Virus record (IMG/VR): IMGVR_UViG_3300030099_002195 | Location: 1-50,535 of that record | DNA: 50,535 nt | Reading direction: 5' to 3' (one strand) | DNA from: a virus | Lineage: Duplodnaviria; Caudoviricetes | Shown here: positions 13,006 through 40,851 of the stretch, piece by piece | How the letters are laid out: each line of letters starts with the position of its first letter | Numbering within the stretch: position 1 is the first letter of the stretch | Notes under the pieces: model-generated | Database searches by the model: none | What the model was told of the DNA's origin: nothing | The model's input: the letters and a program-made list of their open reading frames with translations, nothing else | Translations under genes and position numbers: made by a program

Positions 13006-13136
13006 CACTAACAGCGCCGAAGAGAAAAAAAATTAAAAAAGTTGTAAAGGGTTTGAATAAAGCGTCTAAATTACACGCTAGTCAGGCACGGACACTATCT
13101 AAGTTGGTAAAAAATGGGAAACGGAAAAGATCCTAA
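13002..13136 (+). CDS. Small basic protein (44 aa, not in ORF track)
   Basis: Manual translation MTLTAPKRKKIKKVVKGLNKASKLHASQARTLSKLVKNGKRKRS*; ATGA overlap. Confidence 0.6.
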   Translation: MTLTAPKRKKIKKVVKGLNKASKLHASQARTLSKLVKNGKRKRS

Positions 13137-21216: not shown

Positions 21217-21623
21217 GTGAGGTAAAAACAAACAAACTCACTGGCGTAAGCACTGCTAATGACATCACCGTGACGGTTGGTGCTAGTGCTACACAGTCTA
21301 TGCAAGAAGGGTTATTGAAAGTTTGGATTAGCATAGATGACACAAACCCACCAACAAAAAGAAACTCTGGTGTAGGCGATAGCCTTAATGTTTCTTCGAT
21401 TGGTGATGGTGGTGCGCTTCAATTTGAATTAAATTTTACTAATAACTTTTCGAATGATGCAACAGCACAAGCGGGATATGCTGGAAACAGAGACGGTACA
21501 ACTACTGGTGCTAGGTCAATAGTAAATGATGGGACGCAATCTACTTCAACCAAACATTTTAGAGTTATAAGTGGCGGTTCTGATGAAGATGTTACCTTTA
21601 TGATGGCGGGGGATATTGCGTAA
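21213..21623 (+). CDS. Tail fibre module, class B paralog 2
   Basis: MSEVKTNKL...GLLKVW...SLNVSSIGD...AGDIA. Confidence 0.7.
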   Translation: MSEVKTNKLTGVSTANDITVTVGASATQSMQEGLLKVWISIDDTNPPTKRNSGVGDSLNVSSIGDGGALQFELNFTNNFSNDATAQAGYAGNRDGTTTGARSIVNDGTQSTSTKHFRVISGGSDEDVTFMMAGDIA

Positions 21624-22012
21624 TGGCACTAGGAAAGATAAAAGCAGATACCCTAGAACACAGCACCGCTGGGTCAGTTGATACACAGTTTGTGGTGAAT
21701 GGTAGTGCAAAGGCGTGGTCACAGTCACAAATGTACACTAGTAATTTAATAAATGACAGTTTAAATCACTCGTCATTAACAGATGAGGCGGCGGGTGACT
21801 TCACCTTAACTGTCACTAGTGCTTTTGGAAATGCAAAATTTTGTATATCCGCAAGTACATCAACGGGTCACTCTTTACAGGACAGAAGCACTAGAGATGA
21901 AGCTCACGACAATCGAAGGACAACATCTACACAAAGAGTTAAGACAGAAGATGATGGAACCACGCAAGATTGTAATCATAACTGCGTTTCATTTCACGGA
22001 GATTTAGCATAA
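21623..22012 (+). CDS. Tail fibre module, class B paralog 3
   Basis: IKADTL...GSAKAW...SLNHSSLTD...HGDLA. Confidence 0.7.
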   Translation: MALGKIKADTLEHSTAGSVDTQFVVNGSAKAWSQSQMYTSNLINDSLNHSSLTDEAAGDFTLTVTSAFGNAKFCISASTSTGHSLQDRSTRDEAHDNRRTTSTQRVKTEDDGTTQDCNHNCVSFHGDLA

Positions 22013-22488
22013 TGGATACACCAGAATTTCAAGGCACACACTTATTTGACAGACTCTGCTGGGCTAAAGAAAACCTAGACGGTGTACAGTCTGACTATCG
22101 TGTAGTCTATGAGGACAGCATAGACGAATGTGCAAAGATACTTGTACCTGACCCTAACTGGATGGCTTGTGCGCTACAGGGCGGCATCCTACCACCAGTG
22201 CAAGTATACTGGGAACTAGCCAAAGATGAAGCGCAGCCTGACTTTAAAAAGCACACAAGAGGATATTTGCTCCATAACACTGAGCCTGTCGAGGCGATGA
22301 CCGAAGAGCAAGCAATCGAGTATTTGATTATGAAAGACTGCCCACAGCATGTGTGGCGAGACTATGATAGCGGTAATAAGCCAAAGATGGTAATATGCCG
22401 CAAGGAACAGCTTCCAGCGACAAGAGAGTGGCGCAACGCTTGGAAGATTAGTGAAGAGCTAGCCACTGATGAAACCGTAGCCGCATAG
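22012..22488 (+). CDS. Hypothetical protein, possible fibre assembly factor
   Basis: EAMTEEQAIEYLIMKDCP; LPATREWRNAW. Confidence 0.65.
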   Translation: MDTPEFQGTHLFDRLCWAKENLDGVQSDYRVVYEDSIDECAKILVPDPNWMACALQGGILPPVQVYWELAKDEAQPDFKKHTRGYLLHNTEPVEAMTEEQAIEYLIMKDCPQHVWRDYDSGNKPKMVICRKEQLPATREWRNAWKISEELATDETVAA

Positions 22489-22498
22489 GAGAAACCTC

Positions 22499-22873
22499 AT
22501 GGCACCAACAACATATATCGTAGATAAGGACGGTAATCAGATTGATGCTTCAACCGCTACCGTTCCATCAGACCGTCACTTCAGAGGCGCATGGACTCTG
22601 AGTGGCAAAGTCATTTCTGAAGATTTGGCTGAAGCAAAAAAGATTTTTAAGGACAAAATCCGTGAAGTACGTCAGCCACTGCTTGATGCAGAGGATGTTG
22701 TGTACATGAAGGCTCTTGAAGCTGATGATGCAACTGCAAAGACTAACTCTGTCAACAAGAAGAAGGCTTTGCGTGATGCACCTGCTGCAAAAGCAATTAC
22801 AGACGCAGACACCATTGCAAAGCTCAAAGCTGCTTGGGATACATCTGTATTGGGTGACAGCCCTTACGCATAA
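22499..22873 (+). CDS. Putative tail fibre assembly chaperone
   Basis: PSDRHFRGAW, IREVRQPLL, KKALRDAP. Confidence 0.65.
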   Translation: MAPTTYIVDKDGNQIDASTATVPSDRHFRGAWTLSGKVISEDLAEAKKIFKDKIREVRQPLLDAEDVVYMKALEADDATAKTNSVNKKKALRDAPAAKAITDADTIAKLKAAWDTSVLGDSPYA

Positions 22874-22883
22874 GGAATAGGTT

Positions 22884-23381
22884 ATGCCCTTAACTAAAAT
22901 TATCGGCGGTGGCGTAGCAGCATCAGGTTCTATATTGCAAATAGTCCATGTGCTTTATGAAACTGAGCAGAGTTTGACGCAAAGTGCAAACACTCCACAA
23001 GCAACAGGATTAGCCGCTACAATCACACCAACTGATGTGACCAGCAAAATACTTGTGACATATAGTCTCTGCACCTCATCAAATAACACAGGGGCGGCTT
23101 ACGGTGCTTATCACATGATTTATCACGATATTGGACAAACTGGTTCTGACACAGCATTTAGTTCACGTTTTTTTGGAGCAAGGGCTGGTCAATATAGCAA
23201 CTATACAATGGTAAACTTTGGTGGTCAGATTTACCACGACCACAATACTACCAGTGCAATAGATTACACGGTCTATGTAGATAACAACAGTGCGGCGACA
23301 ATTTACATTAACAGAGGTGGATCAAGCGATACTGATTTAAATGGCGCAAGCAGTATAACACTCATGGAGATCGGACAATAA
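22884..23381 (+). CDS. Tail fibre module, class C
   Basis: GSILQIV, ATITPTDVTSKILV, SSITLMEIG. Confidence 0.7.
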   Translation: MPLTKIIGGGVAASGSILQIVHVLYETEQSLTQSANTPQATGLAATITPTDVTSKILVTYSLCTSSNNTGAAYGAYHMIYHDIGQTGSDTAFSSRFFGARAGQYSNYTMVNFGGQIYHDHNTTSAIDYTVYVDNNSAATIYINRGGSSDTDLNGASSITLMEIGQ

Positions 23382-23707
23382 TGCAACACGAAGCAATATA
23401 TCAACTCTATGATAACGTGGTTTCCATAACTGGCACTGGGTCCGATGCGGTTGCTATTGATAAAGATGGAAAAACGGTTTCTTGGGACGCTTCTACTGTG
23501 GCAACAAAGCAAGCAGAGTTAGAAAAAGCCGCCAGCCTTGAAGATTTAAGATTAGAGCGTACAAGATTATTATCAGAAACAGATTGGTGGGACGCATCTG
23601 ATACGCCTGCCATGACGGATGCACAAAAAAAGTATCGTCAAGACTTACGAGATATAACAAAAACTGCAACATCACTTGATGATGTTAAGTGGCCGGAGAA
23701 ACCATAA
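23381..23707 (+). CDS. Phage tail assembly chaperone
   Basis: LRLERTRLLSETDWW...YRQDLRDIT...WPEKP. Confidence 0.75.
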   Translation: MQHEAIYQLYDNVVSITGTGSDAVAIDKDGKTVSWDASTVATKQAELEKAASLEDLRLERTRLLSETDWWDASDTPAMTDAQKKYRQDLRDITKTATSLDDVKWPEKP

Positions 23708-24165
23708 TGCCATACATAGGAAAATCTCCAGAGTTTGGTGTTCGCAACCGCTTCGTATATCAAGCCACAGCTAGTCAAACGACATTCAGTGGCAGTGATG
23801 GCGATGCGAAGACACTAAAGTATACAGATAGCCTGTACATGGACGTGTATCAAAACGGGGTGCTTCTCAAACCCGGAACTGACTATGCAGCCACAACAGG
23901 CACAAGCGTTGTATTAGTTACAGCCGCCAGCCTAAATGACATTGTTGAGATGGTGGTCTATGACACCTTTGCTATATCTAGCAGTTACACTAAAACAGAA
24001 AGTGACACACGCTATCCGTTCAAAGGTAACAACAGCATCATCCGTTTGAATGGGCAGACCATCAGCGCAGACATTACAATTGACAGCGATGAGAATGGTG
24101 TATCGGCTGGGCCTATCACACAGAACGCAACCGTAACTGTTAACGGTTATTGGAGTATCGTATGA
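23707..24165 (+). CDS. Tail fibre module, class A
   Basis: MPYIGKSP, DVYQNGVLL, IIRLNGQTISADITI; start moved to ATG 23707. Confidence 0.7.
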   Translation: MPYIGKSPEFGVRNRFVYQATASQTTFSGSDGDAKTLKYTDSLYMDVYQNGVLLKPGTDYAATTGTSVVLVTAASLNDIVEMVVYDTFAISSSYTKTESDTRYPFKGNNSIIRLNGQTISADITIDSDENGVSAGPITQNATVTVNGYWSIV

Positions 24166-24545
24166 CCAGTGTATTGAATGTAGACACTATTGCAGATAAG
24201 GCTGGCACTGGTCCGGTTGGGTTGACTAAGCAAGCAGCAGTAAAAGTTTTTGCACACTCAAACAACATTACACCTGCTTTAGAAAACGCCTTAAACACTG
24301 CATCACTTACAGACAATGCGACAGGTTCATTCACCTATAATTATACCAATAATATGAGTGATGCTACTTATGCAACTTGCGAACAAAGTGGTGAAGAAAG
24401 TGGCGCATCAGGAAATGCTAGTATTAGAACTACAAGTGCAAGTCATAGGACAACAAGTTTGTTTAGAACGTCAAATAGAAATTCTAGCAACTCGCTAACT
24501 GATGCTGGACAATCAAATATTTGTGTATTTGGAGACCTCGCATAA
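24162..24545 (+). CDS. Tail fibre module, class B paralog 4
   Basis: MTSVLNVDTI...AAVKVF...LNTASLTDNATG...FGDLA. Confidence 0.7.
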   Translation: MTSVLNVDTIADKAGTGPVGLTKQAAVKVFAHSNNITPALENALNTASLTDNATGSFTYNYTNNMSDATYATCEQSGEESGASGNASIRTTSASHRTTSLFRTSNRNSSNSLTDAGQSNICVFGDLA

Positions 24546-24952
24546 TGGCTAGTATTCTTAAAGTAGATACTCTTACAGGTAATACAACGGCTAAAACCGT
24601 CACTGTTACCGTTGGTGCTACTGCTACGCAATCTCTGGAACAGGGTCTTGTAAAGGCTTGGGCAATGATTGCTACTGTTTCTAGCATCAATGACAGCTTA
24701 AATTCTAGTAGCTTTACAGACTTAGGCACGGGTAAACCACAGGTAAATTTGACTAATGCTTTTAGTGACGCTGATAACTGTTGCGGTGCGGCCAATCCGT
24801 TTCAATACGCAAGTGGAACAGCACATCTTGCCGTTCAATCTGCTGGGTTTTTGATATCAACCTCTGCAATGGGGGCTGAGTGTGGTAGCAATACGACTAC
24901 TTTAGTTAATTGGCACAGAGCCAACATCTTTATGATGGGGGACCTAGCATAA
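24545..24952 (+). CDS. Tail fibre module, class B paralog 5
   Basis: MASILKVDTL...GLVKAW...SLNSSSFTDLGTG...MGDLA. Confidence 0.7.
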   Translation: MASILKVDTLTGNTTAKTVTVTVGATATQSLEQGLVKAWAMIATVSSINDSLNSSSFTDLGTGKPQVNLTNAFSDADNCCGAANPFQYASGTAHLAVQSAGFLISTSAMGAECGSNTTTLVNWHRANIFMMGDLA

Positions 24953-25326
24953 TGGCAAGCGAACTTAGAGTTAACACCCTAAAGGATGCCAGCGGTAATA
25001 ACAGTATTGCCACCAGCTTTGTTGCGAATGGTAGCTGTAAATGTTGGGCTGACTCAAATGCGGGTGCAGCGGCAGATGCCTCACTTAATCTTGCAAGCAC
25101 AACAGATAATGGCACAGGAGATTATACATTCGCACTTTCTTCAAGTATAAGTTCAGCAAATTATTCTCATCCTATTGTTCCCGCAGATGCAGATGGAGGA
25201 GGTGGGTTAGATATTAGCGTTGCATCAAAAGCCGCTGGTTCTATACGAGTAGGCACTATTAGAGATGACAGCACTAAAACAGACAATGCAAACATTTCTG
25301 TATCCATATTTGGAGAACTAGCATGA
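24952..25326 (+). CDS. Tail fibre module, class B paralog 6
   Basis: MASELRVNTL...GSCKCW...SLNLASTTDNGTG...FGELA. Confidence 0.7.
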   Translation: MASELRVNTLKDASGNNSIATSFVANGSCKCWADSNAGAAADASLNLASTTDNGTGDYTFALSSSISSANYSHPIVPADADGGGGLDISVASKAAGSIRVGTIRDDSTKTDNANISVSIFGELA

Positions 25327-28078: not shown

Positions 28079-29794
28079 ATGGCACAAGCAACAGCAGAAG
28101 TTTTTGAGTTTCCAGCGGGCGGTATCGCCGATTTTTATATGGAAGACCACGAGATCGAAGCTCTGGAGCGTGAAGAAGCGGCGCAGGAGTTTGGATCTTC
28201 TGGTATTGCTACGTTTGAGCCTATTGCCACGCGTATGGCATCTTACGGTCGTTACGGTGACGACACCGTTGCTCACGTTGAAACCGGTGAGTTGATTGTC
28301 CCGAAAGCCCTGATTGACGACAACCCAAAGCTACGAGACTCTATATTTAGTCATCTGCGGGATCTTGGTGTAGAGGACCCAGAGCGCTATGTGGTTGGTT
28401 CTGGTGTAAACTCCATCAATCCAGACACAGGTATGCCTGAGTTCTTTCTGAAGAAGCTGTTTAAGGGCGTAAAAAAGGGTGTAAGCAAACTAGCTAAAGG
28501 CGTGAGCAAAGCTCTCAAGGGCGTGACTAAGGTAATTAAGAAAGCTGCTCCAGTAATTATACCGTTTGCTTTGAACGCAGTCTTTCCCGGCCTTGGTGCA
28601 ATTTATTCAGGTGCTCTTGGAGCAGGTATTGGTACACTCGTTCAGGGTGGTAACCTAAAGGACGCCTTCAAGAACGCCTTGATTGGTGGCGCTATCGGCG
28701 GCGCAACTGCTGCTATTGGTGGCGGTTTACAGGCGGCTAAAACTCCCGGTGGTAGCTTTAGTCAGGGCGCTATGAAAGGTATTCAGGATGCCGCTAAGTT
28801 CTCTAACCTACAAACAGCCGGTAAACAGCTTGCTACGGGTCAGTTTGGTCAGTCCGGGTATGAAAAAGTTTTGTCTGACCAAACTTTGGTTACTCCGGCT
28901 TCCGAGACTTTAGCTAGTGTTAAAGAGGGCATCACTCCGGAGAGTGTGGCGGCGGATGCAACAAAAGGTGTGGATGGGGCCGCGTCCGCTCCTGTTGCTG
29001 CGGGACCAGATCAAATGTATCTTGGAACAGCTTCTGATGCTTTACCACCCGCTTCACCGCTCACTACACCAAGTCCGCTTCAGTCTCCAAATCCTGCTGA
29101 CCAAGCTTTCTTTGGATCTGGTCAAATATCAAGCGCACAGCCTACACCGCCTCCTACAATGTTGGAACAGTTACAGAGCGCTGGCAAAACTGCTATGGAC
29201 TACGGCGGTAAGGCGATGGACTTCTTGACAGGAAGCGATCCAACATTTGCTCAAAAGAACAAGTTAGCCCTTGATTTTGTAAAAGAGTCCGGAGGAAAAT
29301 TAACTTATGACAAAGCCCTTGAGATGGCCACCGCTGAGTTAACCCCCGGCCTAATTCGCACATACGGACCATCTCTGGCCTTGGCTGGTGGGGCTACTTA
29401 TTTAGCTGGCGGATTTACACCGCAAGAACTAGATGAGATGAGCGACGAAGAGCGGTTAGCGGCCCTCGGACCTTCTGGTTATGACCTTTACATGGCAAAC
29501 CAAGCTAAATATGGGTTACCGGCTGAAACCCCGAAGTTAGCTCAAGGTTTGTTCTCTGTTCCAACAACTTTTGCAGCGGACGGCGGTGAGATATTCCCAC
29601 GACGTGTAGGTGGTATCATGCCAGATGAGGGCACTCCCGGCAAAGACAGCGTAAAAGCCATGTTAATGCCCGGTGAGTTTGTAATGACTACAAATGCCGT
29701 AAAGGGCTTGGGTGACGGCGATAACAACAAAGGCATTAATAGAATGTACGACATGATGCGCGGTCTTGAGGCTAAAGGGAAGGCGATGGCATAA
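28079..29794 (+). CDS. Internal virion/ejection protein with cationic amphipathic helix
   Basis: GRYGDDTVAHVETGE, INPDTGMPEFFLKKLFK, Gly/Ala hydrophobic segments, C-terminal DSVKAMLMPGEFV. Confidence 0.7.
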   Translation: MAQATAEVFEFPAGGIADFYMEDHEIEALEREEAAQEFGSSGIATFEPIATRMASYGRYGDDTVAHVETGELIVPKALIDDNPKLRDSIFSHLRDLGVEDPERYVVGSGVNSINPDTGMPEFFLKKLFKGVKKGVSKLAKGVSKALKGVTKVIKKAAPVIIPFALNAVFPGLGAIYSGALGAGIGTLVQGGNLKDAFKNALIGGAIGGATAAIGGGLQAAKTPGGSFSQGAMKGIQDAAKFSNLQTAGKQLATGQFGQSGYEKVLSDQTLVTPASETLASVKEGITPESVAADATKGVDGAASAPVAAGPDQMYLGTASDALPPASPLTTPSPLQSPNPADQAFFGSGQISSAQPTPPPTMLEQLQSAGKTAMDYGGKAMDFLTGSDPTFAQKNKLALDFVKESGGKLTYDKALEMATAELTPGLIRTYGPSLALAGGATYLAGGFTPQELDEMSDEERLAALGPSGYDLYMANQAKYGLPAETPKLAQGLFSVPTTFAADGGEIFPRRVGGIMPDEGTPGKDSVKAMLMPGEFVMTTNAVKGLGDGDNNKGINRMYDMMRGLEAKGKAMA

Positions 29795-30636
29795 TGGCTA
29801 CAAATACCGAAATACAAATAATCAAAGAAGCTCCAGAAATAGAAGCCTATAAGATTGGGCTTCTTGAGTCTGCAAAGAAACTAGCTGACCAGCCGATTAC
29901 CCTTCCAATTCAGCAAATCGCTCAAATGTCTGGGTTGCAACAACAGGCTATTGCTGATGCGTCCTCTGCCACAGGCGGTATTGGTGGCTTCCAACAGTAC
30001 TTGTCGGATGCAGGCACCGCGTTGGGTGAAGCAAAGACCACGCTAGACCCGTCTGGCATCACGCAGTTTATGAACCCGTATCAAGCAGCCCTTCAGGCTG
30101 AGATTGACAGGTCCTTTGATATACAGGCCGCACAGGCAGGGCTTGGTGCAGTAGGTCAACCCGGTGGGCCGTCTGCCTTTGGCGGATCACGGGCCGCGAT
30201 ACAACAGGCAGAGATAGGGCGTAACCGTGCAGCGGCTTTAGCGCAATCGCAGGCACAGAACTTTTTACAAGCTCAACAGGCGCAGGCGGCACAAGCAGAA
30301 GCATTAGGAAAGCTTGGACTTCAACAAGCGGCGCTGGGGCAGCAATCACAGCAGCAGACACTGCAAGACATTGAAACACAGTTTAATTTGGGTAAACAGC
30401 AGCAGGCGCAGCAGCAGGCGGAAATTGCAGCACAGCAACAAAGTGATTTGGCTCAACTCTATGAGCCTTATAATAGATATTCTTTCTTATCAGACATTTA
30501 CAAGGGTGCGCCGTCTTCGCAACAAACTATTTCATCAGCTACCGCGCCCAATGTATCACCGGCTCAGACTTATCTGGGTCTGGGTATTGCAGGATTATCA
30601 GCGGCAGCAGGCGCTAAAACAGCGGGGTTATTCTAA
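29794..30636 (+). CDS. Internal virion/ejection protein (Gln/Ala-rich)
   Basis: FMNPY, AFGGSR, Q-rich coiled coil, hydrophobic C-terminus. Confidence 0.65.
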   Translation: MATNTEIQIIKEAPEIEAYKIGLLESAKKLADQPITLPIQQIAQMSGLQQQAIADASSATGGIGGFQQYLSDAGTALGEAKTTLDPSGITQFMNPYQAALQAEIDRSFDIQAAQAGLGAVGQPGGPSAFGGSRAAIQQAEIGRNRAAALAQSQAQNFLQAQQAQAAQAEALGKLGLQQAALGQQSQQQTLQDIETQFNLGKQQQAQQQAEIAAQQQSDLAQLYEPYNRYSFLSDIYKGAPSSQQTISSATAPNVSPAQTYLGLGIAGLSAAAGAKTAGLF

Positions 30637-33600
30637 TGAACAGAAGCGTATTAGCCAGACAGATGTTTGCCAAGGGTGGTCAGGCCGTGCCTAACGAGTA
30701 CAAGGGCTTTTCAAAGCTGCCTGAAGAGGTGCAGATGAAGATGGACCCTGTTGCTGCCAAGAAATATCAGGAAGGCGGGGAAATTAGAGCAGGGATTAGT
30801 GAAGAGTTACGTCGAGATATAGACAGAGTTAAAGCACAATTAATAAATGAAAAAATGGACCAACAACGTCAGATGGAGAATATAACTGCTTTACAAGCAC
30901 TTAGGAATAAAGCCAGATACGATGTTCCACTCCTTGGTTTAAATGATGTAAGCAGAGAACTCCCCGCTAACGAGGAGGGCTTCAACCCAAATAATATTTA
31001 TAATATTCTTCGTTTTTTTGATCAAAATCCAGAATTTGATGTATCGGATTATAATGAATTTTTTAAAACAAACTTAGACCCAAGAGATTTTTCAGTATTG
31101 GAAAAAGAGGCAGAACCTCCTGCTGTAGGCATGGCAATGGGCGGTGATCCGGTTATGGCACAGGGCGTTGGTTCAATGATGCCGCCTCCACCTGCCATGC
31201 CCTCCGCACCAGCAGGGGGCGGACAGGCCATAGACCCGCAAGTGCTTGAGGGCGCTTTAGCTACGGCAGAGCAGGAGATTACAAACCTCGACCAAGCCGA
31301 AGACTTTGAAACGGTTATGAACACCATACGTGGTGATGAAGCGACAGTTGAAGAGCGCTATGAGGAGCTTGCCGGTATCGTAGGCGAAGAAGACGCCAGA
31401 CAGACGCCTGAGTCTGTCCTTACACTGGTGCAGCCCGCTATGGTCATGGGCGCAGTAGACCAAGGCATTGGCGGCTTGGCGCAACAAGAGATGATGGAGC
31501 CTGTACAGGGCGCTATGGCGCAGGGGATTATGTCAAACGTGGCACCTCCACCGCCGCCCGCGGCACCTATGCCTACTGGTGGTATGGGGGGACCACCACC
31601 CGCAAATTTTAAGGAAGGCGGGCTGGTCCGCCGCGGAGACAACCAGCCAGTTCAAATGTACGCCAACGGAGGAGAGACAATTGCGGATTTCCGCAGGTCT
31701 TTAAATATACCGCCCCCTGTAAACGCTTTCCCGGTTCTTAGTCAGGCAACCGGTCCTGTTCGGGTAACTCCACCACCTGCACCTGCACCTGCACCTGCTC
31801 GTGGAGACGGTTCTCGTTTGAGAGAATTAGTAGAGGCTCAAAAAGATATTTACCGAGAGTACGGGTTAGGTGATCCCGCAGCACGAGCCGCGGAACTTGA
31901 GTCACAAAAAGATTTAACCAAGGCACAGATGCTGTTTGATATAGCGCAAACGGCCCTTACCTTTGCGGGTCCAATGCAAGGGGAGCGACCCGGTGCCAGC
32001 GCAGCAGAGCGCCTAGCTATGGCTGCTTCAGCAACAAAGTTACCACAAACCATAGGTGCACGAGCTCAGACGCTTGCGGAACAGAAGAGAGCCGCGGCTA
32101 AAGAAGAAAGAGCCTTGGACCTCGCAGCACTTCAATCGGCAGAAACAAAACTTGCCGCAGAGGTGAAAGCAGCAGATGAGCTTGCGCTTGCAAGAGCTAA
32201 ACCTAAAACTCCAAAACCTATGGTTCTTCTTGATAAGACGGGAACTCAAGTTTTAGGTCAATTTAATATTAACGACTCCGACGATTATGCACGTGCTAGA
32301 GTTATGCGGGACCAGAATCCGGGTTCTAGGCTTTCTGATGGCGGTCCGCAAAAACCCAATACGGTAACTATTGAAGGTCAAGTTATTGATATTACAGACA
32401 TGAAAAGTCCAAAAGTTGTCTTTGGTGATAAAAAGAGAGACACCAAAACTGTAAACGGGCAGATCGTAGATTATACCGACCCGAATAACGTGAAAGTTAT
32501 TTTTGGAACACCTGATGTCAAGACCGTTACAGTGAAAGGTCAAGTTATTGACATTACAAAGCCGGAAACTCCAAAAGTTATTTTTGGAGAGAAAGATCCT
32601 AATATAAAGATAGTAGAGGGACAAATTGTTGACATCACAGATAAGGCTAATCCTGTAGTTGTTTTCGGAGATCCTAAAAAAGATACTGCAATGGTTAACG
32701 GTCAACTTATTGATTATACGGACTCAGATAATCCAAAAGTTATATATGGAGATAAGGACACAAAAACAGTTACCGTTAACGGTGAGGTCGTGGACATCAC
32801 TGACTCACAAAATCCAAAAGTTATATTTGGTAAACCCAACGTCAAAACAGTTACGATTGATGGTCAAGTTGTTGATATTACAGATCCAGATGATGTTAAA
32901 ACTATTTTTGGTAAGAAAAAACGAGATATTAAAATTGTTAGAGGTCAACTGGTTGAAATTCCAGCAGATGGCGGGGCTCCTGTCCCGATCTTTGGTGAGC
33001 GCACTCCAAAGACCGGCACTTTTGAAAATATGATACTGGCTAACGGAAAGAGCGTCATAGTTAAAAAGGTCGGGTCTACTTTATATGATACAACTGGCGA
33101 GATTATTGATCTAGCATCTGATACGTATAAAGATGCCGTGATAGTCAGTAAGGACACGGCTTTCACCGCTTCAAAAACAGCAACAAAACAAGCCAGAGCA
33201 CGGGCTGAAATAGATCGGTTAGATAGGGCCGAAGGTGATGATAGGTTGTCAGGCCAGTTAAGGGGTCAAGACGATGTTATTAATCAGCGTGTTGAAGCTT
33301 TAGGTGGCTCTTTATCTCCAGATATTGAAGCAGTAAGCTTTGATGCTCTTAGAAACGCCAGAAAAGGTGTTGGCTTCTATAATAAAATAAAACAGTCACT
33401 TAGTGAATTTGGGGGTGCTTTAGTTCCTGCCTTTGAAAATGCTTTTGCAGATGAAGTAGAAGCCGGGAACTTTATAGATACTGTAAATGTTCTTGGTAGG
33501 GTGGCATTGGCTAACAGCCCAAGATATGCTGAAGGTGAACAAACTAGATTAGCTAATTTGTTCCCAGATACACAAAGACTTCTAGCTAACCCGGAAAATG

Positions 33601-33836
33601 CGGTTAGAAAACTAATTGGGTTAAAGAGGGTTATGCGTTTTGAATACAGGCAGAATTTAAACGTGTTAGCTGAGTCAACGGATAGTGTTCTCATACGACA
33701 GGCAGAACAGTCCAATTACGCTATTCAAAGTGTTTTAAAGATGCTGGAGACCATACCGGATCGCGGCGTTCTTGATGATGCATCTGTGGACGCAACCATA
33801 GACGCTTTACGTAGAGCGCGAGGGCAAACGCAATGA
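30636..33836 (+). CDS. Large internal virion protein with beta repeats
   Basis: 1066 aa; five xxGG motifs, Pro-rich linkers, eight ~27-aa repeats. Confidence 0.7.
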   Translation: MNRSVLARQMFAKGGQAVPNEYKGFSKLPEEVQMKMDPVAAKKYQEGGEIRAGISEELRRDIDRVKAQLINEKMDQQRQMENITALQALRNKARYDVPLLGLNDVSRELPANEEGFNPNNIYNILRFFDQNPEFDVSDYNEFFKTNLDPRDFSVLEKEAEPPAVGMAMGGDPVMAQGVGSMMPPPPAMPSAPAGGGQAIDPQVLEGALATAEQEITNLDQAEDFETVMNTIRGDEATVEERYEELAGIVGEEDARQTPESVLTLVQPAMVMGAVDQGIGGLAQQEMMEPVQGAMAQGIMSNVAPPPPPAAPMPTGGMGGPPPANFKEGGLVRRGDNQPVQMYANGGETIADFRRSLNIPPPVNAFPVLSQATGPVRVTPPPAPAPAPARGDGSRLRELVEAQKDIYREYGLGDPAARAAELESQKDLTKAQMLFDIAQTALTFAGPMQGERPGASAAERLAMAASATKLPQTIGARAQTLAEQKRAAAKEERALDLAALQSAETKLAAEVKAADELALARAKPKTPKPMVLLDKTGTQVLGQFNINDSDDYARARVMRDQNPGSRLSDGGPQKPNTVTIEGQVIDITDMKSPKVVFGDKKRDTKTVNGQIVDYTDPNNVKVIFGTPDVKTVTVKGQVIDITKPETPKVIFGEKDPNIKIVEGQIVDITDKANPVVVFGDPKKDTAMVNGQLIDYTDSDNPKVIYGDKDTKTVTVNGEVVDITDSQNPKVIFGKPNVKTVTIDGQVVDITDPDDVKTIFGKKKRDIKIVRGQLVEIPADGGAPVPIFGERTPKTGTFENMILANGKSVIVKKVGSTLYDTTGEIIDLASDTYKDAVIVSKDTAFTASKTATKQARARAEIDRLDRAEGDDRLSGQLRGQDDVINQRVEALGGSLSPDIEAVSFDALRNARKGVGFYNKIKQSLSEFGGALVPAFENAFADEVEAGNFIDTVNVLGRVALANSPRYAEGEQTRLANLFPDTQRLLANPENAVRKLIGLKRVMRFEYRQNLNVLAESTDSVLIRQAEQSNYAIQSVLKMLETIPDRGVLDDASVDATIDALRRARGQTQ
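32356..33000 (+). repeat. Eight degenerate ~27-aa coding repeats
   Basis: Consensus TVTV-x-GQVVDITD-xx-NPKVIFG. Confidence 0.85.
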
Positions 33837-36800
33837 CGACTAATCCTACACCCTCTGTTTTTACTGAAAACAGCCCGTTTAAAGCTATTGAGTTCAATGC
33901 GGAAGAATTACAATTTGTTTACGATCAGCATGGCGATAAAGCGGAGGAGGCTTTAGCTAAAACTACGTCTGCTTTTCTAAATGAAATGCCTGAGTTTAGA
34001 GGGACGGCGGATTACGGTGAGTTACTTCAGGGAACGGCTCCCATTCTTGATTTAGTGCCGATGAGACCTGAAGATCGTGGGAAGGCGATAACTGACGATC
34101 AAATCTTACGTTTGTTTTCAAGTTTAAAAACATTAGGTGAAGACGGTGCGCCAACAGAAACTGACGCTTTTCTGCGAGGTTTAATACGAGGAGGTGGTTC
34201 ATTTGCCACAGGCGTTGCTGGAGCAAAAGCAGCAGCCGCCGCCGCTCCGCCATATGTCCCACTTCCCGGTCCTCTTGCCCCATTAGGCGTTTTATCTAAA
34301 CCAGCGGCGGGTCTTGGAGGTTTTTTAGCAGGATCTGTTCTCGGCGATGTGCTTGTAGGAACGCCCGTAGCAAATATGCTTACTCCGGGGCTAGACGATG
34401 TAAATTTGACACCTAGAGCAGAAGCCACCTTTAGAGCGTATGAGTCTGCTGGTAGTGTAGCACCGTTTATATTTATGCCGCACACTGCACCAAAAGCGGC
34501 TTTTAGCACGGTATCTTCACTAAGAAAACTGCCCCTTGCTAATCAGGTTACCGTGCTTTCCGCTGACGACATGGCAAACCCTCTGGTTACACAGTATTTA
34601 TCCGGTAGATTAACAGGAATACCTACGTCTCGCCAATTTAGGGCTACACGAGATCAAATATTTAGAGAGGCTAAAGAGGCTGGCCAAGACATAACCTTGA
34701 AGGAAGCTGCAAAACTTGCTGCTCAACAGTTAAATCAGTCAGGGCGAATGGTTCGTGGGACCATAGGTGCTTTTGATTATGCTGAACGAGCTCTTGTGGC
34801 TGGAGGTCAATCCTTCCGATCTTTATCTCCGGGCCAAAAAGGCTTTTTTATGGGTGTGGAAACAGCCGCCATTCCTGCAACGGGTGCTGCGGTTCAAATG
34901 CAAGAGACAGCCGCCCCAAGAAGCCCCTCTGCCAGACTGGCTGCGGAAACAGCCGGTAGCCTTGCACCTCAATTATCCTTACTAAAAATAGCTCCATCAA
35001 TCGTTAAATCGGGAAAAAATTTTTTAACAAGAATAGCCGAAAACAGAGCGCTTAAAAAACCTTTAGATATATTTGGAACCAGAGCTAGGGCTGAAAACAG
35101 AGCCACTCAAGATATCTTAGATATTTTTGAGCAAAATAAAGAAAATCCGGATGATCTTTTAAAAGCTTTAGAAGAAACCCTTGTTGATCCTGTTATTAAA
35201 AACGGAGAAATTGTGGGTTACAAGCTGAAACCAAACTTCCAACCTCAACCCGGAGCGGAAAAAGAAGCCATATTTTCTGGTAAGTTTGTAAACAGCCCTG
35301 CCATAGATCAACTAGAACAAATAGTTTTAGGTAGAGGAGGCCCAAATCTTTCGGCAAAACAAGAGGCCGATTATTTAAAAGCCTTAGAGATGGAAAAAGG
35401 CATAATCTGGGCTATGCAAGGTTCTGGTGATCCTGAACTAATGAAGGTAGCCGGGGATATGATGCAAAATAGGATCTCCATGCTCATTGCTGCGAGAACA
35501 GAAAGAGCAATAGATAATGTCGTAAAGTCTGTTCAAAAAGTTTACCCCGAAGGCGGTGCAGAGGCTAGTGCCCTCATTGGCGCACGACTTAAAGATGTTA
35601 TAAAGACGCAAAAAGATTTATTTCGTAGGTTAGAGGCAAACGCTTGGTCAAGGGTAGACAGAAACCGGGAAATACCTACGTTTTATAGAAAAGACGATGA
35701 GACTGGAGAGTTTGTAGAAAACAATATTCCAAACTTCATTGAAGAGTTTGATGCTGAACTAGCTAGGATGGACAAGCTGGACAGGGACTTTTTAATGAAT
35801 GTCCCCGGTTTTAAAGAAATAAATGCCCGAATATTAGATTATAAACAGCAGCTTGGGCTAGACGCCACAGATGTTTTAGCGAGTAGACCAGATGCGGTTG
35901 TGAGATTTGATGAAGCTTTTTTAAATACGCAGGGAACCCCCGCACGACAAAGTTTTTTAAATATTTTAGAACGGAACGGAATAACTGGAACGACAACAGG
36001 TAGTCGTGTTGACGAGTTAAGAGAACAAGTATCTGAAGGAGCTTTAGAGTCGTTTAATCAAAGAATACGGCTTTCTGAAGCTCGTCCCGGTGCCGGGATA
36101 GATGTAAACAATGTAGAAAATTTACGAGCCGCGGCAAATTCTAATGACGAACTTGCTGACCGCCAAATGGCCTTATTTGAACAAGACCGGGCAGCGGGAG
36201 ATTCTTTTAGAGAAACGGCTGAACGGTTGAGAGAGGAAGCTAATTTATTCCGGGCAAGAGCGGACGATCTTGAAAACCCTGTTGCATCAAATGTTCCAAC
36301 CACTATAGACGATCTAGTTCCTGACGAAGCAACCATAGAACAGTTAGGTGCTTTAGAAGCTCGTTTTGGCCGAAAAAATAGAAATGATCCAGTTGTTCAA
36401 CTTATAAGATTAAAAAGACAAGCTTTAATAGCACAAAGAGCTCAAGCACAGGGCGGTGAAGCTAGCGGCGTTATCACGCAAAATCTTACGCAAGGAAACT
36501 TGACCTCTCTGTACACAAAATTAAGAAAGTTACAAAGAGAACAAGGGCCAACTGATGCAAACACAGCAAGAATATTAAACAATCTTGCGGAAGCGACTTT
36601 AGATGATTTAAACGCTGGTGTCAGAGGTAATCCGGAATACGATGCGGCGCGGGACATATCTTATGCGTACAATGAGTATTTAAAAAGAACTTTTGGTGGA
36701 GACATAGTAAGTCAAAATAGACGTGGCCAAGACGTAGTTAACGAAGCCCTTCTTACAGACAAACTTATGACGGGTAGGCCGGATGCGGTATCTTTAAAAA

Positions 36801-38260
36801 TAGGTCAAATTAATGAATTAGGTAAACAAATTAGAAAGTATGCGGCTGACTCTGGATATGAAATTGTTTCCAAAGATGAAGTAGCTGACTATATGGGGAC
36901 AACAGAGAGTGTCCTGCTTGACACTCTTCGTCTTGCTTTGAGAGAAATAGAATTACCCATTGAGGCTAGAACTTTAAGGACGGATGAGGCCATAGCAGCC
37001 GCTCAAAACGAGGCGATGCAACAGTTTAGGGCTAAAAACCCCCGCATAATGGAGATTTTCCCGCAATTATCAGACATGATAGATGAAGCTGGAAGCGCTG
37101 GAAACTTTTTAGCTAGAACCAAAAAAACAATAGCAAGATTAGAACAGCAGGTAGCTGATCAAAAAGCTTTCGTCAAATTGACCAGAGCAGAAAATCCAGA
37201 ACGAGCAATACTCGCTGCTCTTAATTCTGACAATCCCACTCAAGAATTAAATTCATTAGTAGAGCTTATTAAAGCGGGCTCTAATCCTAGAAACCTAAGA
37301 CGCTTACTCAGAAACAAAGGAATAAGTGCAGATATAGATGCACTAGACATAGAGGCTGCAAGACAAGGTGTTCGTAGAACTGTAATTTCGTTAGCTTTTT
37401 CTAACGGGGGACAATATAGCGCTGCGGGTATAAATGCAAAAGGCGCATACAACATGCTTTTTGAGGCTTTACCAAAAGCCAGTCGTGAAAGTGAAAATCT
37501 AGCTAACTGGATGGTTAGCAATAAAATAATGACAGAGGAAGAGGTACAAGGGTTAGAACTTGGTTTACGTCGGCTTGTTCAATTTGAAACCAAACAAGAT
37601 GTGTCTAAAGCCATATTAACTAATGAGGCTCCGGCTTTGTTAGATTTTTATACACGCATCATAGGTGCTAGAGCAGGAACAACATTCTCCGGTATGCTAC
37701 CGGGGACAAGAGGTGCTGGCGCTGGTTTGATTGAAGCGGAGGCCGGATCTAAATACTTACGTAAGTTGACTCAAGAATTACCTGCTTTACAAGAGTATGA
37801 TGCTTTGGAAAGAATTTTATTAGACCCAGAACTATTAGCTATGGCTCTGCGTAAACCTAGATCTGCCTCTGAAAAAACCAGCATTGTTAATAATATTCTT
37901 AGTGGTTTAAAGACCGTTGGAATAGGCATGACCGTTCCTGCCGGATCCAGAGCAATACCGTTAGGGGCACAAGAATTTGCAGAACCTGAACAAGAACCTA
38001 TAATCCCACCAGAAGAACCCGATGTAGGTCCTGTAAGCTCTGTCGCACCAACAGCTATGCCCGCACCACAACCAGTTCCGGCGCAACCGGTGGCACCACC
38101 TCCCACAACCACCCTTGCGTCGGCAGCGCCACAGGTTCAAGCTCCACCCCCACCTCCGGCTAGTGGACAAGTGAACCGACAACAGTACGCTGCCCTGTTC
38201 CCAAATGACCCAACCTCTGCCCTCATACGGCAACAAGGTATTGGGAGCCTGATGGGATGA
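33833..38260 (+). CDS. Very large internal virion/ejection protein
   Basis: 1475 aa helical; ends YAALFPND...QQGIGSLMG; last large gene of structural arm. Confidence 0.7.
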   Translation: MTTNPTPSVFTENSPFKAIEFNAEELQFVYDQHGDKAEEALAKTTSAFLNEMPEFRGTADYGELLQGTAPILDLVPMRPEDRGKAITDDQILRLFSSLKTLGEDGAPTETDAFLRGLIRGGGSFATGVAGAKAAAAAAPPYVPLPGPLAPLGVLSKPAAGLGGFLAGSVLGDVLVGTPVANMLTPGLDDVNLTPRAEATFRAYESAGSVAPFIFMPHTAPKAAFSTVSSLRKLPLANQVTVLSADDMANPLVTQYLSGRLTGIPTSRQFRATRDQIFREAKEAGQDITLKEAAKLAAQQLNQSGRMVRGTIGAFDYAERALVAGGQSFRSLSPGQKGFFMGVETAAIPATGAAVQMQETAAPRSPSARLAAETAGSLAPQLSLLKIAPSIVKSGKNFLTRIAENRALKKPLDIFGTRARAENRATQDILDIFEQNKENPDDLLKALEETLVDPVIKNGEIVGYKLKPNFQPQPGAEKEAIFSGKFVNSPAIDQLEQIVLGRGGPNLSAKQEADYLKALEMEKGIIWAMQGSGDPELMKVAGDMMQNRISMLIAARTERAIDNVVKSVQKVYPEGGAEASALIGARLKDVIKTQKDLFRRLEANAWSRVDRNREIPTFYRKDDETGEFVENNIPNFIEEFDAELARMDKLDRDFLMNVPGFKEINARILDYKQQLGLDATDVLASRPDAVVRFDEAFLNTQGTPARQSFLNILERNGITGTTTGSRVDELREQVSEGALESFNQRIRLSEARPGAGIDVNNVENLRAAANSNDELADRQMALFEQDRAAGDSFRETAERLREEANLFRARADDLENPVASNVPTTIDDLVPDEATIEQLGALEARFGRKNRNDPVVQLIRLKRQALIAQRAQAQGGEASGVITQNLTQGNLTSLYTKLRKLQREQGPTDANTARILNNLAEATLDDLNAGVRGNPEYDAARDISYAYNEYLKRTFGGDIVSQNRRGQDVVNEALLTDKLMTGRPDAVSLKIGQINELGKQIRKYAADSGYEIVSKDEVADYMGTTESVLLDTLRLALREIELPIEARTLRTDEAIAAAQNEAMQQFRAKNPRIMEIFPQLSDMIDEAGSAGNFLARTKKTIARLEQQVADQKAFVKLTRAENPERAILAALNSDNPTQELNSLVELIKAGSNPRNLRRLLRNKGISADIDALDIEAARQGVRRTVISLAFSNGGQYSAAGINAKGAYNMLFEALPKASRESENLANWMVSNKIMTEEEVQGLELGLRRLVQFETKQDVSKAILTNEAPALLDFYTRIIGARAGTTFSGMLPGTRGAGAGLIEAEAGSKYLRKLTQELPALQEYDALERILLDPELLAMALRKPRSASEKTSIVNNILSGLKTVGIGMTVPAGSRAIPLGAQEFAEPEQEPIIPPEEPDVGPVSSVAPTAMPAPQPVPAQPVAPPPTTTLASAAPQVQAPPPPPASGQVNRQQYAALFPNDPTSALIRQQGIGSLMG

Positions 38261-38730
38261 TCAACGACGTACTGGAACTAATGCTCAAGTCCGATATGCA
38301 CCGTGACTGGTACATTGCCGATCTGGAGCGGCTGGTCCTGCCTGCCATCGAAGCAAAAAAGATGGTTGTCGTGTACGAAGACAAACTAACAGCCAAGACG
38401 GAGATCTTTCCGCGGCCCACGGGTCTGTTCAGCCATGCGTTTCTGACGAAGGAAGCAGCGGAGGGTTACGAGAACGGCACACGCAAGTTACAGCCCGAAG
38501 ATTGGTACACGGACCACGGGTCTGGTATGCTGTACGTCATAGACTTTATCGCACCGTACAATAACGCATTGAAAATAGGACGTTTTGTACAGCAGGAGTT
38601 GACCAGTCGGTATATCGAAGTATACCCGTATGACGGGGCTACATTCTTGCGGCAGGCAAACGGTAAGAAAAAAGGGTACGCTACAGGCGTACAGGAAGAC
38701 ATCGTAGGACGGAGGCATAGCTGTGTATAA
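38257..38730 (+). CDS. RTX toxin-activating lysine acyltransferase homolog (HlyC/CyaC/RtxC family)
   Basis: SDMHRDW (S-x-x-H), LVLPAI, P-x-G...AFLT-x-E, LQPEDW...SG...IDFIAPY and a late Arg reproduce the HlyC motifs in order; 157 aa. Confidence 0.85.
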   Translation: MINDVLELMLKSDMHRDWYIADLERLVLPAIEAKKMVVVYEDKLTAKTEIFPRPTGLFSHAFLTKEAAEGYENGTRKLQPEDWYTDHGSGMLYVIDFIAPYNNALKIGRFVQQELTSRYIEVYPYDGATFLRQANGKKKGYATGVQEDIVGRRHSCV

Positions 38731-39403
38731 AAAGCGTTGGTATGACGGCCTACATGATATCTACGAAGACAAGAACGAATTTGAAATAAAGTTCGGCTGC
38801 TTTGGCGGTGATGGTGGTGGTAAGGGCGGCGGTAGTAAAAATCCTGCGCCTCCGTCCGATCCTGCACCAACACCCGGTCCAGACGATGGCTTCCGCGGTG
38901 AACAAAGCGCCGCTCGTTCTTCTGTGGCAGATACAGCCGCTGCGGCAGCCGCCGCCGGATTAGGCACAGGATACGGCACAGGAAAAACTGACACATCTGC
39001 CAAAGGTGGAAACTTGGACACGTCTATGGAAAATATGTCTATGGATGAGGCGCTTGGTTTAAAAACTAATTTAAGCACCCCCGTAAGTCTCACAACGCCC
39101 ACTGTTGCACCTACAGCTAAAACTCTGGCAGATATGTACGCAGATGCACAGGCTAAAGCCAAGTCTCTTTCAACGCCTACTAATCAAAAGAGTCAAGCAC
39201 AAAAAAATTTAGAAGATAGTTTAAATCAAGGCATACTAGGAGCTCAATATTCTAGTCCTACGACGGTTGGTTTTCAGGGTTTTAGCCCTTTCAACCCAGC
39301 TAGTAAGGGCCTTGGACTTGGTGTACAAGCTAACTTTAAGTATGCCAAGGGCGGCGTAGTGCACCAAGGTATAGGCAGTATATTCCCGTACCCTCGCCGC
39401 TAA
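38723..39403 (+). CDS. Low-complexity hypothetical protein, candidate acylation substrate
   Basis: GTG start with GGAGG SD overlapping acyltransferase stop; FGCFGGDGGGKGGG; C-terminal YAKGGVVHQGIGSIF. Confidence 0.65.
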   Translation: MYKKRWYDGLHDIYEDKNEFEIKFGCFGGDGGGKGGGSKNPAPPSDPAPTPGPDDGFRGEQSAARSSVADTAAAAAAAGLGTGYGTGKTDTSAKGGNLDTSMENMSMDEALGLKTNLSTPVSLTTPTVAPTAKTLADMYADAQAKAKSLSTPTNQKSQAQKNLEDSLNQGILGAQYSSPTTVGFQGFSPFNPASKGLGLGVQANFKYAKGGVVHQGIGSIFPYPRR

Positions 39404-40851
39404 ACCAACCACTCTCTAGCCTGCTCTCCAAGCACTTGACCGGCAAGATTTATTTTGTTGCGTAGGGTCTTCAGGATCTTTTCGTCAATAGTGCGCGGCG
39501 ATACCAAGTCGATGTATGTCACTTTATTGATTTGGCCTATACGGTGTGCTCTGTCTTCAGACTGCAACCGTATTTCCAAATCATAGCTATTTGAGTAATA
39601 TATCATTGTGTTAGCCGCGGTCAGCGTGATCCCGTAGCCACCTGTCCGCGGCTGACCGACAAAGAAACGAAGCGGGTTATCTTTGTTCTGAAAGCGGTTG
39701 ACCGTTTCTTGACGCTCATCCTGCGGGGTTTCGCCATAATAGGTTGCCACCGCTTCGGGCCCAAAGCGGTGGCGCAGGGCCGAAGCTATCTGTTGAATGT
39801 CGTATGTATACGACGCCCAAATGATGGCTTTTCCCTGTAGCTCATCTGTGATCTCCAGTAATTCTTTAAGTCTATTGCTCTCCACCGGCTGTATCTCGCC
39901 CTCATCTGGTTGCAAATGCCCGCAGCATATCTGTTGCAGGCGCATGATCTGTGTCAGCACACTAGCTGTTGTAGCCAGTTCACCGTTCTCCAGCTTGGCC
40001 AGAGCCAGCTTCTTCATCTGCGTATACAAGCTCTTCTGCTCGTCCGTCAGCGCAACGTCACGTCTAATGTACATTTTGTCTGGCAGATCTAAGCAATCTT
40101 CTTTCAAAGTGCGGTTGCTAAACCGGTCTAGCTTCTGGTTCAGTTCATCCAATCTGCGGTATCCGGTGATCTCCTGAAATGCACGAGTGCCCATAGTGCG
40201 CTTCTGCACAATCGCGTACCTGTTCTGAAAGGCAAAGTAACTGTTGAAGTTGAGCGCAGCCGGTGACAAAAACATACACTGACTGAACAAATCCATAGGT
40301 GATTTAGTAACCGGTGACCCTGTAAGGATGCGCTTATACATAGCGTCCTTGGCCAGCATCATCACGTTCTTGGTGCGTGTGGCTTTACGGTTTTTGATAG
40401 TGGTGCTTTCGTCCACAATCATTATGTTACTGGGGTTTCTACGTAAAAAGGCATATGCGGCCTTCGTACCACGCGCAGTAGACAGCGCCTCTATGTTCAT
40501 TACAAAGATCTTCATGCCGTCAAACGGCTCATACACAAGCGCTTTCATCTCGTCTTGAAACTTTTTAGCAGTAGACGGCGTCCACCGCACCACCATGCGC
40601 TCTATCTCATCTGGTAAGTGCGCCGGTATCTCACCCTGAACCCAGTTGTCATAAACGCCTTTTGGTGCCAGTATAAGTGCCGCGTTTATTTTTTTGGCCT
40701 GATACAGCATACCAATAGTGTCGATAGCCACCTTGGATTTACCTGTACCCATTTCCATGAACAGCGCATAGAACTCCTCGGCCCACGAGTCTTCCAAGAC
40801 TTTTCGCTGGTGGTCAAACGGCTCAGTTTTAAATTTATATTCCCGCATCAT
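39400..40851 (-). CDS. SNF2-family (SF2) helicase
   Basis: MEMGTGKS, VDEST, LTGSP, GGYGITLT, QSEDRAHRIGQ. Confidence 0.92.
   Translation of the reverse strand: MMREYKFKTEPFDHQRKVLEDSWAEEFYALFMEMGTGKSKVAIDTIGMLYQAKKINAALILAPKGVYDNWVQGEIPAHLPDEIERMVVRWTPSTAKKFQDEMKALVYEPFDGMKIFVMNIEALSTARGTKAAYAFLRRNPSNIMIVDESTTIKNRKATRTKNVMMLAKDAMYKRILTGSPVTKSPMDLFSQCMFLSPAALNFNSYFAFQNRYAIVQKRTMGTRAFQEITGYRRLDELNQKLDRFSNRTLKEDCLDLPDKMYIRRDVALTDEQKSLYTQMKKLALAKLENGELATTASVLTQIMRLQQICCGHLQPDEGEIQPVESNRLKELLEITDELQGKAIIWASYTYDIQQIASALRHRFGPEAVATYYGETPQDERQETVNRFQNKDNPLRFFVGQPRTGGYGITLTAANTMIYYSNSYDLEIRLQSEDRAHRIGQINKVTYIDLVSPRTIDEKILKTLRNKINLAGQVLGEQAREWLV

Follow-up and report, generated by a model that had tools for sequence, protein, structure and literature searches.

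A Phage HlyC-Family Acyltransferase Gene Paired with a Predicted Substrate Carrying a Conserved, Putatively Processed N-Terminus

Introduction

Toxin-activating acyltransferases (TAATs) of the HlyC type rely on a His/Asp dyad for catalysis, which in the CdiC enzyme consists of His37 and Asp107 (PMC8510554). N-terminal acylation has been described in another bacterial system, where AatD acylates a conserved N-terminal glycine of CexE, leading to membrane incorporation (PMC7943197). Among tailed phages, ejection protein gp7 of P22 is made with a 20-residue leader that is cut by host OpdA to give a mature start of KGGKG (PMC8402733), and gp13-like genes have been described as encoding GNAT proteins (PMC6775973). 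Here, we describe an hlyC gene and the partner gene directly following it in a stretch of Caudoviricetes DNA, IMG/VR record IMGVR_UViG_3300030099_002195, and compare them with these systems. The whole of this 50,535-nucleotide stretch is referred to below as the window.

The window gene encodes a genuine HlyC/TAAT-family protein with an intact His/Asp dyad. Comparison of the partner genes of related phages leads us to propose, at somewhat short of even odds, that this enzyme acylates the partner’s processed N-terminus (predicted to be Gly28) after removal of a leader, the acyl group probably being a fatty acid supplied by host acyl-acyl carrier protein (acyl-ACP). The family, fold, and dyad of the enzyme, the gene pairing, the conserved partner start, and the joint loss of both features in relatives are established.

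An HlyC-Family Enzyme

A preliminary description of the locus had assigned the enzyme to the HlyC family from a series of ordered motifs, and this assignment was borne out by both profile and structure searches. The protein passes the curated cut-off of 25 for the Pfam HlyC family (PF02794; E 1.1e-13, 51.7 bits), and its sole sequence match in the PDB is ApxC (4WHN; profile E 1.7e-7). The same structure ranked first when a model of the enzyme was searched with Foldseek (E 3.6e-5, TM 0.45-0.47) and with VIA (Z 6.3, root-mean-square deviation 3.5, 91 residues aligned), followed in the latter by GNAT-superfamily chains at a Z of at most 5.0. The modest level of these fold scores reflects a model that cannot be relied on beyond residue 126, its predicted local distance difference test (pLDDT) values being below 50 from residue 127 onward, i.e., in the C-terminal third; a second model, of the L288 enzyme, has a pLDDT of 87. 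Of the motifs first noted, S12-x-x-H15, LPAI (residues 28-31), IDFIAP (95-100), and a late arginine (R132) all stand, and the middle one is to be read as EDWYTDHGSG rather than EDW..SG.

H15 and D96 align with the S-x-x-H and D-W-I-A-P residues of ApxC and are invariant in 34 of 34 sequences (the query and 33 of 67 homologues). The profile arginine, R132, aligns with the last aligned arginine of ApxC, a residue that we take to contact ACP. Among 145 distinct phage HlyC sequences, the late arginine is kept in 144 and the aspartate in all 145, although the latter count is partly circular, as one of the search patterns contained the aspartate. Where the partner is acidic and Gly-rich, 115 of 123 enzymes retain the catalytic histidine, and the same position is a tyrosine in 20 of 21 enzymes with Met-Gly helix partners. 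In a related observation, the HlyC proteins of pelagiphages (L117 21400-21813, L485 5911-6360, and L119 4459-4908) and of L035 (10001-10432) have no catalytic histidine, keep the aspartate and arginine, and may constitute a second catalytic class.

A tblastn search of cultured phages with the window enzyme gave no match, and the single match obtained there with the enzyme of another relative, L045, was disregarded (E 0.9). NCBIfam returned nothing for the enzyme or the partner, and pairwise phmmer comparison found no link among the window enzyme, T7 gp13, and P22 gp14.

Pairing of hlyC with a Conserved Partner Start

The partner directly follows hlyC in 36 of 36 IMG/VR loci (one of which, L001, is identical to the window), and a leadered partner follows it in 73 of the 74 metagenome loci that could be scored, 80 having been kept of 256 and six of these being too short. 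The linkage to a morphogenesis operon put forward in the preliminary description is upheld. In the window clade and the metagenome loci alike, partners begin with a leader of 25-35 residues followed by GGDGG or a close variant; in the window itself, 25 residues are followed by CFGGDGGGKGGGSK (C26, F27, G28, K34).

DNA patterns were used for the wider locus search, the divergence of alignments A3 and A4 being too great for the locus finder. The two pattern scans comprise the best 119 of ~150 and the best 120 of ~130 loci, with full flanks for 80 loci each, and 119 of the 120 viral loci listed for the HlyC-core pattern are HlyC by profile. Among the matches listed, 116 hlyC loci have a flank: 85 show a leader, then C-[FY] (rarely with R or Y for C) and X-[GS]-[DSGP], 28 have leaderless M-[GS]-[GS] starts, and three are unclassified. 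The strict motif occurs after the hlyC stop in 105 of these 116 listed loci, compared with two of 172 other open reading frame (ORF) ends in the same loci and one of 587 ORFs elsewhere, supporting the neighbour, one of the targets suggested earlier, as the most likely substrate. The motif expression was derived from the same loci as were counted, and the reverse search, starting from CFGGDGG, therefore carries more weight. Filtering by start, length, and frame reduced its 80 loci to 25 plausible leadered ORFs, most matches being off-frame chance occurrences, and hlyC was found upstream of 22 of the 25, with two of the three misses lying at contig ends. One locus (L312), in which the CFGGDGG match overlaps the ribosome site before the real start, was dropped. 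Chance linkage of hlyC and partner was rejected.

The leaders belong to several unrelated families, one of them without any lysine, and unrelated leaders accompany divergent enzymes. Depending on the phage, the module is found after portal, before terminase, among tail/lysis genes, or among internal proteins, and thus appears to be mobile within morphogenesis operons. The first residue after the leader motif is K, D, N, or Q in 57 of the 85 leadered partners, whereas in the leaderless group Met is followed by Gly or Ser in all 28. The initiator methionine is normally removed before Gly or Ser and not before K, D, N, or Q; the leader, therefore, looks like a device for exposing a free N-terminus.

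Leader Loss and Joint Loss

Leader loss is seen in a group of phages (L364, L417, L454, and L481) whose hlyC is 78-89% identical to that of L368, L396, and L437 and whose partners are homologous (E 4e-81). In L368, an ATG overlapping the hlyC stop opens a leader that ends in C-F and is followed by N-G-D-P-D-G. The ATG of L364, L417, and L481 is the same one, again in an ATGA overlap and with an in-frame stop just upstream, and stands directly before S-G-D-P-E-G; the deletion takes away the cysteine and leaves hlyC intact. The leaderless form nests among leadered ones. Because the leader has been deleted exactly up to the motif, the mature start can be placed right after C-F, which corresponds to Gly28 in the window.

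Joint loss is evident from loci collected through the neighbouring helicase gene. Of 78 such loci, 48 reach the giant gene upstream of hlyC, and these include 16 with hlyC and leader, 31 with neither, one (L045) in which hlyC is paired with an MGSSLKK partner, and none with a leader alone. The other 30 are too short to score (23 with neither, four with both, and three with the leader only, at contig ends). Three of the 31 (L046, L048, and L067) form one clade nested among hlyC carriers, with a Shimodaira-Hasegawa-like approximate likelihood ratio test (SH-aLRT) value of 96 in a quick helicase tree. In this clade, hlyC, leader, and GGDGG are all gone, and the giant gene continues into a C-terminal extension that shows homology to the body of the partner (best E 5e-9 to 9e-9). 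This single fusion/loss event ties hlyC to the N-terminus of the partner, and the body of the partner to the presumed ejection protein.

A GNAT-like gene was seen directly before proteins beginning MSFIFGGG or MSFGGG in L085 (8055-9346), L116 (42727-44021), and L118 (18097-19241). The window orthologue of the MSFIFGGG proteins, a 280-residue gene at 29794-30636, has neither the GNAT-like gene nor the Gly-rich start, a parallel joint loss. In HTVC023P, the GNAT-like gp80 likewise precedes an MSFIFGGG protein; the GNAT assignment is tentative, coming from clusters with a 12-67% Pfam share. P22 gp14 presumably also has a GNAT fold.

The Partner Protein

The 25-residue leader first described for the partner was confirmed. 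Over leader codons 4-32, compared with nine relatives, third positions account for 100 of 126 base differences, and 92 synonymous codon changes stand against 23 non-synonymous ones; the partner frame is therefore coding. GGAG-type ribosome sites precede both hlyC and the partner. Between the window and 11 relatives, leaders are 35-100% identical and bodies 17-33%. The partner has no Pfam or PHROG match and belongs to no known family. It is devoid of a hydrophobic segment (maximum 19-residue hydropathy 0.78; only three of 37 clade partners reach 1.6), and its ESM Atlas model, with a predicted template modelling score of 0.14, shows no fold, one viral cluster being found at 0.75. A GIGS-like end closes 36 of 36 complete clade partners.

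Several observations concern short motifs in presumed internal proteins. A phi-x-x-GG motif (FAKGG, YQEGG, FKEGG, YANGG, YAKGG) recurs in those encoded at 130-702, 28079-33836, and 38723-39403 of the window, and the giant gene and the partner both terminate in G-I-G-S-L/I; the two motifs are possible packaging or cleavage signals. Two motifs of these types lie at the fusion joint in L046, L048, and L067. Downstream of the partner in L011, L017, L022, and L027 is an extra gene of 138-163 residues (MPLP.G.IF.PARY), which in L016 is fused to the partner.

Operon Context

The window is a linear phage record, 86% complete, which carries genes for portal, GroES, capsid, tail-fibre, helicase, primase, and DNA polymerase proteins. 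Its SNF2 helicase has its best matches, at 45-55% identity, in 023Pt_psg01, DSL-LC04, HTVC027P, and HTVC023P, and, as far as the helicase, clade DNA polymerase, GroES, and capsid genes are concerned, gene order is similar to that of HTVC023P-type marine phages, of which the window may be one. Neither hlyC nor the MAKGG-type repeat protein described below was found in the fetched parts of HTVC023P/027P. A scan of GTDB genomes gave one 16-residue match only, which is not meaningful and offers no hint of the host, and one RNA sequencing run matched at a share of 0.06, which is not evidence of expression. Sequencing runs containing the window at full length may be the samples from which it came.

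The features of the locus are collected in Table 1. As first described, hlyC overlaps the genes on either side, by 4 nucleotides (ATGA) upstream and 8 nucleotides downstream. The upstream 1475-residue ORF has no Pfam or PHROG match, and its label as a virion gene comes from its place in the gene order.

Table 1. Features of the hlyC locus in the window and annotated hlyC carriers
Feature	Coordinates	Strand	Remarks
571-, 280-, and 1066-residue genes, presumed ejection operon	28079..33836	+	also in relatives without hlyC
1475-residue gene, presumed ejection protein	33833..38260	+	translationally coupled to hlyC; role from gene order only
HlyC/TAAT-family acyltransferase, 157 residues	38257..38730	+	S12 38290-38292, H15 38299-38301, D96 38542-38544, R132 38650-38652
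Partner gene, 226 residues, GTG start, low-complexity, predicted substrate	38723..39403	+	directly follows hlyC
Leader (residues 1-27), conserved, with Cys26-Phe27 at its end; removal predicted	38723..38803	+	leader identity, codon pattern, leader loss in sister phages
G28-G-D-G-G, predicted mature N-terminus/acyl acceptor	38804..38818	+	alignment A3; X-[GS]-[DSGP] after C-[FY] across unrelated leader families
Lys34 of the earlier Gly-Lys idea	38822..38824	+	not conserved in partner comparisons
YAKGG and GIGSI motifs of the C-terminus, perhaps a signal for capsid targeting or processing	39341..39382	+	motif scan; motifs common to large upstream genes
SNF2 helicase, convergent	39400..40851	-	marks operon end; hlyC-independent anchor for locus search
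Annotated carriers			HTVC026P gp47, HTVC111P, HTVC112P, HTVC103P gp34, HTVC104P, HTVC115P gp46, CRP-235 gp30

Elsewhere in the window, six short paralogues of tail-fibre family phrog_11355 stand in a row together with an assembly chaperone (20824-25326), possibly forming a variable receptor-binding cassette. The 1066-residue gene (30636-33836), the length of which differs widely between relatives, contains tandem 23-residue beta-like repeats (TVxGxVxDIT...PKVIFG) at residues ~577-800, with a weak RodZ_C match. A very basic 105-residue protein at 13779-14096 (+ strand) carries seven MAKGG-type repeats (KKKGMAKGGKV); it is truly Gly-Lys-rich and perhaps DNA-condensing, and its neighbours (12757-13769) are likewise short and basic.

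hlyC Genes of Cultured Phages

GenBank already labels hlyC genes as “toxin-activating lysine-acyltransferases” in six pelagiphages and Roseobacter phage CRP-235 (Table 1). In HTVC026P, the protein that follows gp47 is gp48, a gpJ-like central tail protein with the start MGGVVKS, and the gene after HTVC026P-type enzymes has an M-G start in 44 of 44 related loci. Similarly, HTVC115P gp46 precedes MGAISRV (gp45), and CRP-235 gp30 precedes MGGGGGD (gp29). The virion region of HTVC103P retains an MGSVFKR protein, gp58, an MG-start helix protein like the partner of the HTVC115P hlyC. In L383 (minus strand, ~1500-4000), a T7 gp13-like gene (phrog_308) was seen before an MCMGGGGDGG protein, along with an hlyC before an MSSDSS protein and then a gp14-like MCNP start.

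The preliminary description knew of no characterised phage lipidation system of this kind; the enzyme gene itself was already annotated in these phages. A literature search, with subscription papers and bioRxiv supplements outside its coverage, returned no work on the function of a phage HlyC or on acylated virion proteins. In the text available, a pelagiphage preprint mentions HlyC once, in a figure legend (bioRxiv 10.1101/2019.12.14.876532), and “acyl” is absent from an ejection-protein review (PMC8954989) and a 2026 P22 preprint.

Proposed Mechanism and Alternatives

In the mechanism that we propose, the partner would be translated together with the enzyme and serve as its substrate. A peptidase of either host or phage would cut the leader after Cys26-Phe27, much as happens to P22 gp7, the acceptor would be the alpha-amine of Gly28 and not a lysine, and the donor would be acyl-ACP. 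The partner would then be packaged in the capsid, and its acyl chain could act as a membrane anchor for an otherwise hydrophilic, disordered protein during ejection. A link to the virion is suggested by the fusion of the partner body to the giant gene in L046, L048, and L067 and by the position of the module beside portal, terminase, tail, or internal-protein genes elsewhere.

Classical TAAT chemistry, i.e., fatty acylation of an internal lysine in the partner (K34 or the leader lysines) or in another virion protein (the Lys-rich helix of the 571-residue gene or the MAKGG-repeat protein at 13779-14096), corresponds to the mechanism of the preliminary description, and we consider it unlikely. 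Internal lysines are the targets of all characterised family members, including CdiC, which acts on a non-RTX (repeats-in-toxin) protein at a lysine other than the Gly-Lys one (PMC8510554). The enzyme’s His and Asp are intact, the MG-start partners are Lys-rich amphipathic helices, and leader Lys23 is found in at least 90% of 29 leaders. Lys23, however, is Arg in several relatives, and the overlap with the TAA stop of hlyC partly dictates leader Lys3. The preliminary description favoured a Gly-Lys site, but only seven of 37 clade partners have Gly-Lys among the 15 residues that follow the motif (any lysine in 16), and just 11 of 73 metagenome loci have it; the partners of L007 and L029 have no lysine anywhere after the motif, and among the leadered partners of other phages, 35 of 80 lack lysine in the leader and the next 30 residues. 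Its second candidate, the Lys-rich helix, fares no better, given that homologues of the 571-residue gene occur in relatives without hlyC. With the lysines not conserved and the N-terminal leader/X-G-D motif conserved, N-terminal acylation seems more likely than lysyl acylation. The earlier interpretation is thus partly supported, the proposed site shifting from Gly-Lys to the processed N-terminus.

Quite unlikely, in our estimation, is a short acyl cap placed on the freed N-terminus, or an enzyme that only binds as an assembly chaperone, with a role in stability or capsid loading such as has been suggested for T7 gp13-type GNATs: TAATs take acyl-ACP and not acetyl-CoA (PMC8510554), and His, Asp, and the late Arg are all kept in the window clade. 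A cysteine-centred scheme, in which the leader is a recognition tag like those of ribosomally synthesized and post-translationally modified peptides and Cys26 is S-acylated, or N-acylated after a cut before it, would account for the cysteine at position -2 in 76 of 80 leadered partners, for the Met-Cys start of T7 gp14 and other ejection proteins, and for the unrelated leaders that accompany divergent enzymes. We hold it to be distinctly improbable, in that the 28 leaderless partners have no such cysteine, several window-clade partners have Leu or Val in its place, and the L364/L417/L481 deletion removes it while sparing hlyC. Modification of a host protein, or drainage of host acyl-ACP, with the neighbour as a linked passenger, would suit the accessory nature of the module and the HTVC103P/104P-type hlyC genes of the replication region. 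It would sit poorly with the close coupling, in both directions, to one N-terminal motif in unrelated phages, with placement in a late operon, and with the MG-start helix protein still encoded by HTVC103P, and appears very improbable.

A number of points also weigh against acylation of the processed N-terminus. The proposal departs from the lysine chemistry of the characterised enzymes. The leaderless forms represent three lineages and the fused form one, so that few independent events are involved, and the module, being absent from 31 of the 48 scored relatives, is dispensable and accessory. In P22, deletion of the leader costs little, with a burst of about 60% (PMC8402733). The circularities noted above for the motif expression and the aspartate count apply here as well, and the donor site is not seen in the enzyme model owing to its low-confidence C-terminal third. 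Lysine occupies position X in 20 of the 85 leadered partners, where side-chain acylation is possible; the window-clade leader retains a KK/KR pair along with Lys23, and the prevalence of Cys at -2 would be accounted for only as a cleavage signal. Lastly, HTVC103P gp34 sits in the replication region, away from virion genes.

More tentatively, and with a doubtful balance of probability, it may be suggested that tailed marine phages run a widespread and mobile form of N-terminal lipidation, in which a TAAT-fold enzyme and host acyl-ACP fatty-acylate the freed N-terminus of a virion protein (a leader-cut X-G-D or a Met-Gly tail/ejection protein), as a bacterial-virus equivalent of N-myristoylation; the same logic, with another enzyme, might then hold for the GNAT genes next to gp14 in T7 and gp7 in P22. 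If so, TAAT chemistry would extend from internal lysines of bacterial toxins to the N-termini of phage proteins, and tailed phages would possess lipid-modified proteins, which were not found described in the literature searched, together with an undescribed way of lipid-tagging a presumed virion protein. This would offer an answer to how hydrophilic ejection and tail proteins enter the host envelope, as well as a testable idea about why genes with an acyltransferase fold, long without explanation, stand next to those of ejection proteins (T7 gp13 and P22 gp14). The annotation “toxin-activating acyltransferase” in a phage should not be taken to denote a virulence gene.

Comparison with Known Systems

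The RTX activators HlyC, CyaC, and ApxC (PF02794, 4WHN) share with the window enzyme their family, fold, S-x-x-H and D-[FW]-I-A-P motifs, and late Arg, as well as the placement of the enzyme gene directly upstream of its presumed substrate. RTX systems differ in the company they keep. As first described, the window (86% complete) has no RTX nonapeptide in any ORF, and no ABC-exporter, type I secretion, or RTX families among the ORFs scanned with PHROGs (68) or Pfam (60); membership of an RTX operon was rejected. The partner is a short, disordered phage protein in which the conserved element is the N-terminus and not Gly-Lys. CdiC, of class IV contact-dependent growth inhibition (CDI), resembles the window enzyme as a TAAT co-opted for a non-RTX protein; its substrate must engage the envelope of another bacterium, and it is accessory, not essential (PMC8510554). 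Unlike the proposed phage reaction, CdiC transfers 3-hydroxydecanoate onto the internal Lys1467 of CdiA (PMC8510554), and membership of a class IV CDI system was rejected, the hlyC neighbours having no cdiB/cdiA-type match in Pfam, PHROGs, or NCBIfam. The window enzyme is a TAAT by sequence family and, on these scans, part of neither an RTX nor a CDI system.

The hlyC genes of cultured pelagiphages and the roseophage are of the same Pfam family and likewise come from marine phages; their partners are leaderless, and the pelagiphage enzymes do not have the catalytic His, which is present in the window enzyme as His15. In the P22 gp14-gp7 and T7 gp13-gp14 pairs, a small gene directly precedes an ejection protein (PMC8402733, PMC6775973), much as hlyC precedes its presumed virion partner in the window, and the available text of these sources reports no acylation of either pair. 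The P22 gp7 leader and KGGKGG resemble the leader and GGDGG of the window partner. With an acyltransferase-fold gene upstream of a leader and an xGGxGG start, the layout is that of P22 gp14-gp7, a likeness of architecture only: the window enzyme has no likeness to DUF2824/PF11090 or to the T7 gp13 and P22 gp14 sequences, nor has the partner any to gp7 (PF25688) or gp14 (PF24072).

AatD is, we assume, an Lnt-like enzyme. It differs from the window enzyme, a cytoplasmic-type TAAT in a phage, in being bacterial and part of a secretion system, and resembles the proposed window system in the acylation of an N-terminal glycine (PMC7943197).

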